A stretch of DNA of 64,000 nt from an uncultured Methanosarcinales archaeon (lineage in GTDB: Archaea; Nanobdellota; Nanobdellia; Woesearchaeales; JAGVZT01): assembly GCA_964419615.1 (NCBI GenBank), contig CAYQPU010000003.1, forward strand, positions 8,054 through 72,053, read 5' to 3'. The notes beneath the pieces are model-generated. The model was not told where the DNA came from. It worked only from the letters and a program-made list of their open reading frames with translations, and did not search any database. Below are positions 12,366 to 58,860 of this stretch, in pieces (within the stretch, counting starts at the first letter, position 1; the number at the start of each line of letters is the position of its first letter). The position numbers and the translations under genes were made by a program.

Positions 12366-12659
12366 TTTCCCCTCATAGCTCACAAAACACCTGGGTACAG
12401 ATTGATTAGAACAACAATCAAAGATTTCTGCAATCCCAGGCACCGACCCGAGCTCACATATCTTTGATATCTTTTGTGTATTTGATGGTATCCACACATA
12501 AAGATACATCTACCAGAAAGTTAAAAATAATATCTGTATGTGCAAACATAAGCTTAAAGATAATTATAAGGTATAAATACTTTTCGTAATTTTTTCCAAA
12601 AAATAATCTATATTTTTATTAAGGAAATATTTAAAAGCTATTTTGGGTTTGTTTATTAT

Positions 12660-24001: not shown

Positions 24002-24661
24002 CTAAGGTCTCATCCACCTAATCTCATAATAAGTGACATCTCCTTCATCATCAACAACACCTATTAAAAGACGCTTTTTTGTTGAGTGAGCAACTCTGTT
24101 TTTTGCAGCAAATTCATACCAAGTAAGAACATTTCCTTCATGAACTGGATAAATAATCCACCTAGCATGATCCTCTCCTGGTTTAATTCCACGGTCATAA
24201 ACTCTAAAATCTGCTCCAAATTTCAATGCAGTTTTTACAACATAACCTCTGTTCCTCATGTTCTTATAAACACAGTACCTAATCCAGAAATTTGGCTCAA
24301 CTTTTCTTGCCCTTAGAATATAAGTTCTTGATGTTAGCTTTTTTTTCCTATAATCTGTAATGACTAATTTGCCTTTTTCCATTAAAAAAAGGCCTTCACA
24401 TAAAGAAAGTTGGACTTTTCCACCTTCAATTATCTTTCCAAAACAACTTTGATTAAAAAATTCTCTTGCAGCATCACTATCTTCGGTTAGTACACGTTCT
24501 CTTGCAAAGATAGCTTTAACTATTTCTTTTTTCTTTTTAACTTGTTCAGCAGCAGATTTTTCTACATTTTTATCTGTTTTTTTAGTTGTAGCTTTTTTGG
24601 TTTTTTTAGCTACTTTCTTCTTTGTTATTTTCTTTTCAACTGCTTTCTTTTTACGTGGCAT
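24002..24661 (-). CDS. endA: tRNA-splicing endonuclease, single catalytic unit with Lys-rich N-terminal tail
   Basis: VYKNMRNRGYVVKTALKFGADFRVY, H in EDHA, RVAHSTKK, YYEIRW. Confidence 0.93.
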   Translation of the reverse strand: MPRKKKAVEKKITKKKVAKKTKKATTKKTDKNVEKSAAEQVKKKKEIVKAIFARERVLTEDSDAAREFFNQSCFGKIIEGGKVQLSLCEGLFLMEKGKLVITDYRKKKLTSRTYILRARKVEPNFWIRYCVYKNMRNRGYVVKTALKFGADFRVYDRGIKPGEDHARWIIYPVHEGNVLTWYEFAAKNRVAHSTKKRLLIGVVDDEGDVTYYEIRWMRP

Positions 24662-24723
24662 GTTATTTAAAAACTACTCTGAAATGCTTTATATACTTTG
24701 CTCTTTTAGTGCAAATAAGTAGG

Positions 24724-24871
24724 ATTAGCTCCCATAGGCCGGTTCATGAGCCAGTTTGTTAGCTTGTTTAGAATAGTAATCTTAGATTATTATCATGATT
24801 ACAAACTGTTCCTTATTGTTTCTTACGATTTTCACAGTCTCATTCACTTAATTGGCCTTTATGGAGCTAAT
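24724..24871. ncRNA. unassigned structured element, copy A (paralog of 52720-52866)
   Basis: terminal stem ATTAGCTCCCATAGGCC/GGCCTTTATGGAGCTAAT; core blocks shared with copy B with compensatory changes; G-U pairs favour + strand. Confidence 0.7.
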
Positions 24872-24931
24872 TTCCAATTATTACGTTTTGTTTTAGAAAC
24901 ATTTAAAAGAATATTTTGATTAATCATATAT

Positions 24932-25203
24932 GGTAAGCTAGATTGGGGGGTTAGCCGTCTCTTGTTACCATAAATCGGCTTTATGATGGAATCGAAGCTT
25001 GAGAAGAGGTAACTTTTCAAGTTGTTGGTCTTGGTTTGGACAGTGAAGTTCTGTCCTGTTGGACTTATGTTTGTAAGAATCATGTCAGGTCAGGAATGAA
25101 GCAGCATTAATTATATTCACAGGTGCTAATAGGGTAGCAGAACCAAGAAAGAACTAAGGTAGCTGGCTTCTTGTTTGGCTATCGATTTTTGAGCGTGCTT
25201 ACC
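24932..25203 (+). ncRNA. ffs: archaeal SRP (7S) RNA
   Basis: helix 1 GGTAAGC/GCTTACC; Alu-like GCTAGATTGGGGGGTTAGCCGTCTCTTGTTACC; helix 8 CAGGTCAGGAATGAAGCAGC (25086-25105). Confidence 0.9.
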
Positions 25204-25210
25204 TCTTTAT

Positions 25211-26005
25211 TTATCTTTTTGTTGAATTGATGAATACTTCTACTTGTTCTGTAATATCTGCTCTACCTGTAGTTTCCAAAGCAAAATGAACCGCTCTTCT
25301 TTTATCATTATTGTATTCTATTTTTTCAGGATATACAGTACCATAATCATTTGAGTATGGATCCTCTTTATAGGAGTAATATATTTTATTGCTATGAGTA
25401 TCATTTATTAAGTCTAAACTCCACCTAACTGCTAAATTTGTTAGGTCTGACACCAGTTCTGAATCATTGTTATAACCAAATCTGTAAGCAGTTCCATCTT
25501 TGGTTCTGACTAGCCAGTATGAATCTTTTTCATTATTGCCACTTGTCTTGTTCTCAACATACATGTATGTTTCAATCTTAGTGTGGAATCTATCTTCGTT
25601 CAGTACATATATTAAATCATATGAAGCTCCATTTAAAGTTAAAGTAAATGTGTCATCAGAAGTATTTATGTTGGTATAGTTAACATCTCTTTGGATGTTG
25701 TTTTGAGTGATTGACCAAGCGTTTCCTAGGATTTCAGATTGTTTTGTTGCTTGACTATTATATACTAAGCCTAATGAAGGTTGAAGATTACTCGTTCCAG
25801 GCGGTATTCTTATTCCATATGAGTAAGTTGCTGAGCCAGTGAACAAGCTTGGATTGAGTTGTCCTTGGAGGTCTAGTTTATTTCCTTGTGGGACTGAAGG
25901 GTTTGAGAAATAGGATTTGGGTTCTCCTGCATATGTGTGATGAATGAATATATTAAATATTATAATTAAAAACATTATTTTGCATATTTTATTTTTATTA
26001 TTCAT
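25211..26005 (-). pseudogene. N-terminal fragment of secreted SpvB/RHS-type protein
   Basis: signal peptide, LFTGSATYSY.I.IPPG..LQPSLGLVYNSQ, WSLD.I.D..SN.I.Y.Y; ends abruptly 8 nt from SRP RNA 3' end. Confidence 0.75.
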
Positions 26006-39453: not shown

Positions 39454-39874
39454 GGTAGAGTGGCTATAAGCCACCTTTTGTAAAACCTCCTATTGAAAGG
39501 AATGGTTTTCCTCAACATTCAACTAAGCGCGTATGCTTGCACTGGCCAGGGCTCACCGTTTCACCAATTCCCTAAAGAACGTCTGCAGAGTCCAGATCTG
39601 TCACCAAATTTGTTTACTGCTTCATTCTCCTTTAAGGCTGTATCGTTTCTGAGTGGTTGCCTTCCATTACAGAACTCCCGTATGGGAGTGGCCTTAATAG
39701 TGGGTGGACTTTCCTCACAAACTTTTAAGAAAAGTTTGATCAAAACAAATGCGACACAAGGTCGCATATCGCGGCTATCTTGCTTAAGAGCAAGCCGCGT
39801 CAAGGGGCTGTAAGCCCTTTATGTTTTGTTCGACCTTTTCTTAAAAGGTCGCGGAAGTTGAGCACCACTCTACC
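39454..39874 (-). ncRNA. rnpB: RNase P RNA with expanded P3
   Basis: P1 GGTAGAGTGG/CCACTCTACC; P4 GAGGAAAGTCCACC and ACAAAAGGTGGCTTA; AGAAAC, TGAAACGG, TGCAAG conserved elements. Confidence 0.92.
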
Positions 39875-52660: not shown

Positions 52661-52719
52661 AATATTAAACCATTTTTAAGGATATATAAGTTTTTCTAAT
52701 AATACTAATACAGAATGGC

Positions 52720-52866
52720 TAGCTGTACCTGGCCTGTTCGTGAGCCAGTTTATTTGATGTTTAATGATTTTGAATTCAAACCTAGATTCAATCTGATAAA
52801 CTGTTCTTTTTTGTCTCTTACGATGAGTCAAGTCTCACTCACTCAAATCTGGCCAAGGTGCAGCTA
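52720..52866. ncRNA. unassigned structured element, copy B (paralog of 24724-24871)
   Basis: terminal stem TAGCTGTACCTGGCC/GGCCAAGGTGCAGCTA; shared core with compensatory changes. Confidence 0.7.
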
Positions 52867-52930
52867 TCTTATCTTATTGATATTTACTAAAACCATAACC
52901 TTTTTAAGCAAAACATTACTCCTAGTTGAT

Positions 52931-53107
52931 ATGGCAAATAATGATTTAACATGTGCATCATGTGGCATTAGAGTTACTAATGATCAGGCAACTGTTAGTT
53001 TTCCCTGCCCAAATTGTGCAAAAACAACTATTACAAGATGTAAGCATTGCAGAGAAAAGGCTAGCAGATACAAATGTACTGAATGTGGATTTGAGGGACC
53101 TAATTAA
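52931..53107 (+). CDS. DUF1610-type zinc-ribbon protein
   Basis: CASCG..FPCPNC..RCKHCR..YKCTECGFEGPN; conserved position before aEF-1beta. Confidence 0.9.
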   Translation: MANNDLTCASCGIRVTNDQATVSFPCPNCAKTTITRCKHCREKASRYKCTECGFEGPN

Positions 53108-58751: not shown

Positions 58752-58860
58752 TAAAATCACCGATTCTAGCAAATGTTCCAAGCTTTATAAATTTATCGTC
58801 TTCTGTAATTTCGGATTGTTTCTAGAAAGCTTTAAATAGCTGTAAATCAGTATCTAGAGT

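Follow-up and report, generated by a model that had tools for sequence, protein, structure and literature searches.

In archaea, non-autonomous DNA transposons of the MITE type are known from Sulfolobus, where the families SM1-SM4 have 25-44 copies, and from Haloquadratum and Halobacterium (PMC10969869); a very high MITE density has been reported for a Woesearchaea genome (PMC11602168). These archaeal MITEs are relatives in kind of a repeat family with two members, copies A and B, in the window (the whole 64,000-nt stretch of DNA that was analyzed). The family has in common with prokaryotic MITEs that its members are small, non-coding, intergenic, present in tens of copies, and foldable into a long hairpin, and that terminal inverted repeats, a duplication of fixed length, and filled and empty orthologous sites are found. 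Unlike prokaryotic MITEs, no parent insertion sequence was found for the family, its internal core is conserved beyond the ends and across host families, and it has three covarying helices together with a variable loop of constant length. Further likenesses are found in the ERIC/IRU and Correia elements of bacteria, which are palindromic MITE-like repeats with transcripts that fold (PMC10969869, PMC3184786). Both they and the family described here are imperfect palindromes of ~130-150 bp, are conserved past their termini, and also occur as larger variants in which insertions occupy fixed internal positions. The sequences are unrelated and the host domain is different, but should the fold of the family matter as RNA, the bacterial elements would be its closest functional analogs. 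The effects of ERIC and Correia elements need co-transcription (RNase E or RNase III sites), whereas copies of this family pair equally well when they lie between divergent promoters and in either orientation. Archaea of this type are not generally known to possess RNase III.

Copy A lies between endA and the SRP RNA gene, as described in an earlier sequence-only reading of this DNA. The endA gene, which encodes the tRNA-intron endonuclease, is located upstream of the copy on the minus strand (24002-24661; PF01974, 2.6e-28), and the SRP RNA follows on the plus strand (24931-25204; Rfam match). Together with the RNase P RNA (39458-39770), the latter provided the only Rfam matches at gathering score in the window. 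With bounds set by alignment, the conserved core of copy A, from closing stem to closing stem, occupies 150 nt of the plus strand (24723-24872; covariance model R1, 131.6 bits, E = 3.8e-34), and that of copy B occupies 153 nt of the same strand (52717-52869; R1, 137.7 bits, E = 6.2e-36). The scored pairs that are formed number 25/29 in copy A and 27/29 in copy B. The placement of both copies was correct and they are homologous, with 80% column identity over 195 aligned positions, flanks included; every shared motif quoted for them was found. Just past the SRP RNA, an open reading frame of 264 amino acids (25211-26005, minus strand) matched the SpvB domain family (PF03534, 1.2e-12), which is surprising for a small DPANN genome. 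Near copy B, a small gene for an HVO_2753-type zinc-finger protein (PF07754, 6.6e-16) has its true start at 52931, and its frame (52715-53107, plus strand) is open backwards across all of copy B, up to an ATG at 52715. The open frame running through the copy is probably due to chance; the zinc-finger gene in the congener (G001, the one other species of the genus) has no such extension.

The claim that the element is present twice is true of the window only. A profile made from copies A and B identified 25 copies across ~20 contigs of the source genome (G000; 1.48 Mb, 99% complete), and the covariance model assigned these to 24 full copies (146-155 nt) and one truncated copy. All 25 are intergenic, and the copies in tandem gene contexts are divided 5 to 5 between the two orientations, showing no bias. 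In the congener, model R1 recovered ~24 full and 4 partial copies (~28 in total), and the same model found none in 59 other genera. A broader model (R2) detected at least 8 copies in G150 and a single copy in G122, both of which are genomes from other families of the same order, and none in ~140 further genera sampled. A weak match in G138 (E=0.003) was set aside and supports none of the conclusions. The spread across the order is patchy. A scan of genome contigs by a loose DNA pattern returned 119 matches, mostly chance, of which the model confirmed 0; scans of metagenome and viral sequences with a stricter DNA pattern gave no matches.

The copies differ in age. Those in the source genome, A and B included, are old, and decay has brought their outer repeats and duplications down to the level of chance; the flanks at the expected positions of the outer repeats are 0.31 identical between copies, compared to 0.30 expected for random sequence, and the mean pairwise identity of the loops (0.37) is close to the 0.30 that base composition predicts. 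The congener has a dozen copies that are near-identical, loop included, and represent a young subfamily that is absent from the source genome. The congener also contains long variants with ~190 nt of extra sequence within the P3 loop (described below) or ~300 nt after TCTTACGAT, and in some copies the P3 loop reaches ~230 nt. No match was found when the cargo of the long variants was compared with Rfam at E≤0.1.

The core is organized around a closing stem, P1, that consists of 13 bp and an invariant GGCC/GGCC clamp, with a small internal loop separating the two helices. In copy A, the 5′ strand of this region (24723-24740, plus strand) comprises the P1 arm (24723-24735), which pairs with 24860-24872, and the clamp (24737-24740), which pairs with 24854-24857; the equivalent helices of copy B are formed by 52717-52729 with 52857-52869 and by 52731-52734 with 52851-52854. 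After the clamp, a short junction (nGTTC) leads to P2, which has six positions, the central two of which are often mismatched. In copy A, the 5′ arm of P2 (ATGAGC, 24746-24751) pairs with TCTCAT at 24838-24843; in copy B, 52740-52745 pairs with 52833-52838. P3 (CAGTTTGYT/RRCAAACTG) follows and encloses a loop of ~40 nt that is free in sequence and constrained in length, being kept at ~39-46 nt among the source-genome copies. P3 of copy A (24752-24808) is formed by 24752-24760 and 24800-24808 and encloses a 39-nt variable, A+T-rich loop (24761-24799), and P3 of copy B is formed by 52746-52754 and 52795-52803 around the loop at 52755-52794. On the 3′ side of P3 lies a conserved single strand of 30 nt, J3/2 (TTCC...TCTTACGAT...), followed by the 3′ arm of P2 and a near-invariant TCAC; in copy A, these segments make up the conserved 3′ half of the core (24809-24853, plus strand).

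The compensatory changes on which the sequence-only reading was built are real. Copies A and B differ by CAGTTTGT/ACAAACTG versus CAGTTTAT/ATAAACTG and by ATGAG/CTCAT versus GTGAG/CTCAC, and their outer stems differ in sequence, yet both pair. Compared to dinucleotide shuffles, the plus-strand fold gave z-scores of -4.9 for copy A and -5.6 for copy B, with 0/200 shuffles as stable, and the minus-strand fold gave -4.3 and -3.3, respectively. Over 24 copies from the source genome, the three-helix structure is 88% paired and 21 of its 32 pairs are changed on both sides; none of 500 shuffles was as good, and slid controls were 28-47% paired. When 46 copies from the two species were considered, the values were 84.5% paired and 25/32 pairs changed on both sides. 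P1 alone is 92% paired over the 24 copies, with changes on both sides at 14 of 17 pairs. In P2, pairs 24-127 and 25-126 covary (GC/AU and UA/CG/GC), and in P3, which is 97% paired, pair 37-84 covaries (UA/CG). GGCC, nGTTC, P3, and TCAC are 0.78-0.96 identical between copies, with TCAC the highest at 0.96, and J3/2 is 0.53-0.60 identical. Pairing is 91-94% for copies located between divergent promoters, behind a co-oriented gene, or in the opposite orientation, and no dependence of pairing on orientation or gene context was found among source-genome copies. The fold is truly constrained: between copies, the arms of P1 have an identity of just 0.55-0.58, and their pairing is nonetheless ~92%, whatever the neighbor or orientation. 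The strand was also considered in the earlier reading, which took several G-U pairs to favor the plus strand and a tandem GA to favor the minus strand; both strand readings have some support. The counts of G-U and A-C show no consistent asymmetry and do not pick a strand. The minus strand folds better in 17 of 24 copies, and in the alignment, positions that are conserved as mismatches (GUUC facing UCAC, and UC facing UC in P2) could form tandem G.A pairs (GUGA/GAAC) on that strand, but the motif is not kept in G150.

Evidence for mobility was provided by the congener. Its young copies have outer terminal inverted repeats, GGCAAAGTCAAC(TTAA) and (CAGAGTA)GTTGACTTTGCC, and the outer-repeat pattern had 28 matches in that genome, compared to 3 in the control. 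The ends of a second congener subfamily are related to these (GGTTGAGTCAAG...), and the ends of the element in G150 are GTCAACTTAAGG. In the source genome, the outer-repeat pattern of the young congener copies was found at chance level (6 matches versus 3 in the control) and only the inner inverted repeat, P1, remains. Six congener elements are flanked, outside the terminal inverted repeats, by perfect 9/9 direct repeats (CTATAACTT, TTATTGAGA, CTTTGTAGG, TTTAGAATG, AAAGTTCTC, and CAAAAAAAG), and control 9-mers taken directly outward of these duplications match at only 1-6 of 9 positions. In G150, one duplication is perfect (9/9) and three more match at 8/9 positions, with offsets that are similar. 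Around the source-genome copies, target duplications occur at the same level as in the null of that search. Copy A has a candidate left target-site duplication, CTCTTTTAG (24701-24709), with the putative partner TTGTTTTAG (24888-24896); the two are 7/9 identical, not above the null, and are separated from the core by decayed outer ends (24710-24722 and 24873-24887). The candidate for copy B is TACTAATAC (52703-52711), with the putative partner TACTAAAAC (52885-52893), and the 8/9 identity of this pair is by itself not above the null.

Comparison of orthologous sites in the two species revealed insertion polymorphism. The congener lacks the element at the site of copy B, where well-conserved flanks are 43 nt apart instead of ~187 nt, and this empty site contains a single related 9-mer (TAGTAAAAG), which corroborates the candidate duplication of copy B. 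Copy C12a is likewise missing at the orthologous site of the congener. In the reverse direction, eight congener insertions have flanks that are contiguous or no more than ~70 nt apart in the source genome. Two empty sites of this kind lie in the window, at 58798-58808 and 12596-12659, orthologous to the positions of congener insertions L070 and L073; the flanks there are spaced by ~10 nt and ~60 nt, respectively. Only ~7 of the 25 sites are occupied in both species. In the spacer between endA and the SRP RNA gene, the flanks are conserved and the contents differ: the congener carries a young family member of 197 nt, which is oriented oppositely and flanked by a perfect duplication (CTTTTTTTG). 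The left junction of this congener element (CTTTTTTTG) coincides with the candidate duplication of copy A (CTCTTTTAG), so that this T-rich 9-mer, located upstream of the promoter of the SRP RNA, looks like a target that was used repeatedly. The same congener spacer contains a segment of ~137 nt (L082:1818-1955) that is more G+C-rich, has several hairpins and an unrelated core, and ends in the same type of inverted repeat (GGCAATGTCAAG). This suggests that structured miniature elements of more than one kind are mobilized by a shared transposition machinery.

Collectively, the 9-bp duplications and terminal repeats of the congener and the filled and empty sites indicate that the family is a MITE. 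Its members are short, non-coding, multi-copy, and dispersed, terminal inverted repeats and a duplication of fixed length are present in both the congener and G150, and occupancy of orthologous sites varies between the source genome and the congener. For copies A and B, MITE status rests on membership of the family and on the empty site of copy B, and the two are very probably old members of a family of non-autonomous DNA transposons that occurs in a few lineages within the Woesearchaeota order. The mobile unit is the 150-nt core, bracketed in young copies by the terminal inverted repeats, and it inserts into A+T-rich intergenic DNA, duplicating 9 bp of the target. A DDE-type transposase making 9-bp staggered cuts, supplied in trans, presumably moves the element. 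The "outer stem" of the sequence-only reading corresponds to the subterminal inverted repeat, P2 and P3 to inverted repeats nested further in, and the "variable hairpin" to a position that tolerates cargo or spacer.

A search of the four element-bearing genomes for an autonomous partner sharing these ends found none; metagenome-derived genomes often leave repeats unassembled, which makes this absence weak evidence. Several contigs of the congener break at the repeats, namely C25 at its end and C30, C46, and C60 at their starts. Insertion sequences of the IS1 family produce a 9-bp target duplication, as does this family. The ends of IS1 contain CAACTTA, as the repeats of the family do, and this is a lead only. 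An IS1-type DDE transposase gene was found in one of the four host genomes, the congener, which has the young, active-looking copies; it lacks matching inverted repeats, and there is none in the source genome, G150, or G122. This gene (L092:1190-1911, G001:C10), the sole IS1-family transposase gene among the four genomes, comprises an InsA-like zinc-finger frame and, downstream of it in a different phase, a DDE frame; clear inverted repeats were not seen around it. DDE_Tnp_1 genes of the source genome and the congener were rejected as partners as they have no repeat match nearby. Repeat-pattern scans in G150 gave results at control level.

The sequence-only reading had proposed a free-standing, novel ncRNA, ribozyme, or guide RNA, a family of genes in which each copy has its own promoter and the variable loop serves as the guide. 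The covariation is real and neither copy has a match in Rfam at gathering score, including the families that the earlier reading had been unable to match (tRNA, 5S, C/D, H/ACA, hammerhead, twister, and pistol). The only Rfam model to score at all was Y RNA (RF00019), which shares with the element a long stem formed from the 5′ and 3′ ends and a large internal region; its score of 16 bits, compared to a gathering score of 38 (E=0.98), is at chance level and the element is not a member. No ribozyme family matched at E values up to 10. A C/D box sRNA was rejected because C-box-like sequences (ACGAUGA/AUGAUGA) occur in J3/2 of many copies with no conserved CUGA, and the size and architecture are wrong. 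A guide function was likewise rejected, as the longest genome matches of the loops (14.25 nt) equal those of shuffles (13.99 nt). TATA-like boxes, which the earlier reading had placed on both sides of copy A, do occur 15-42 nt upstream of many copies, but they lie outside the mobile unit, and no recognizable promoter was seen in the sequences within the element. The boxes belong to neighboring genes in promoter-rich intergenic DNA and are not specific evidence for transcription of the element. In two small metatranscriptome runs from one study, contigs covered the SRP RNA only (24932-25120) and are uninformative for the element; these contigs start at 24932 and 24935, in agreement with the predicted 5′ end of the SRP RNA at 24931. 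The family has the target-site duplications of a MITE, an observation that the sequence-only reading had itself named as one that would refute its proposal, together with terminal inverted repeats and filled and empty sites, and it is patchy across the order, so that a free-standing RNA gene family is now very unlikely. Far less probable still, and close to negligible, is a tRNA-related gene or an RNA processed by EndA at a bulge-helix-bulge. Such a reading is prompted by the presence of only 10 tRNA matches (RF00005, Rfam cut-off) beside 25 elements in a 99%-complete genome and by the position of endA next to copy A. ARAGORN reported 5-10 tRNAs in this genome and 0 in the window. However, tRNAs are just as scarce in related genera without the element (G002, G003, G008, and G009, with 9-17 matches), the tRNAs that were detected carry long introns, and the element is A+T-rich with the same core in all copies. 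Its 13-bp helix and 4-bp GGCC helix, separated by a small internal loop, do not form a bulge-helix-bulge, defined as a 3-nt bulge, a 4-bp helix, and a 3-nt bulge. Hidden tRNA genes were rejected on the same grounds, namely that tRNA paucity extends to related genera without the element and that the real tRNAs are intron-bearing. The paucity of tRNAs and the element are unrelated facts. The introns in source-genome tRNAs are 13-84 nt long and some appear to lie outside the anticodon loop; among related genera, several have 9-17 tRNA matches and others 33-42, and a tally that includes G006 was set aside.

Assignment of the family to the MITEs leaves the source of the constraint on its fold to be considered. 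An internal fold is not required for plain cut-and-paste transposition, yet conservation of the core extends to old copies with fully randomized flanks. At one site that is occupied in both species (C12b in the source genome and L053 in the congener), the core and its pairing are kept and the loops share nothing. Together, the core kept in old copies and the C12b/L053 pair look like selection in place, where a model of purely selfish DNA predicts otherwise. At four other shared sites, the congener carries the young subfamily, so that what looks like conservation could stem from replacement or gene conversion. We somewhat favor a constraint at the level of the element itself, exerted either on its folded single-stranded form or on its matched sites for the transposase. 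Chief among the alternatives is a role as RNA, which is possible but clearly less probable. In a rival explanation, the element began as a MITE and was domesticated, with immobile source-genome copies kept for a host function of the folded core; this function could be exerted as RNA (protein-binding, kink-turn-like, on the minus strand, where the tandem G.A pairs are possible) or as a DNA site near promoters. Core motifs that are well conserved beside flanks and loops at random level, pairing that is maintained in every context, the C12b/L053 pair with its unalignable loops, and the narrow range of loop length all agree with domestication, as does the lack of a transposase candidate or young subfamily in the source genome. 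On the other hand, the same core architecture is found in congener copies that are actively transposing and in a further family, so the constraint travels with the element and is not host-specific. The absence of an orientation bias and of a promoter in the element also argues against a host function, and conservation at shared sites could again reflect replacement or gene conversion; domestication is accordingly judged unlikely. It is rather improbable that the transposon carries a functional RNA in the form of its conserved core of 110 nt. Such an RNA could be a transposase cofactor in an RNA-dependent form of cut-and-paste, or a mobile small-RNA gene in which the loop of constant length provides a swappable cargo or specificity module. 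If true, this would account for the persistence of the fold in copies that are old and immobile, as well as in different host families.

With a MITE as the preferred assignment, a tempting false positive is removed: what appeared, in a DPANN archaeon, to be a structured and covarying orphan RNA is a transposon family, and compensatory changes between the arms of inverted repeats can mimic an RNA gene. The family is an uncatalogued one in Woesearchaeota, and its recent movement is clear from the 9-bp duplications and from the filled and empty sites in sister species. Its internal fold, unpaired motifs, and loop length are conserved far past the needs of cut-and-paste transposition, even in copies that appear to be immobile. 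If this constraint acts on DNA, the family would inform how a transposase recognizes its substrate; if it acts on RNA, the family would represent a mobile structured RNA in archaea.
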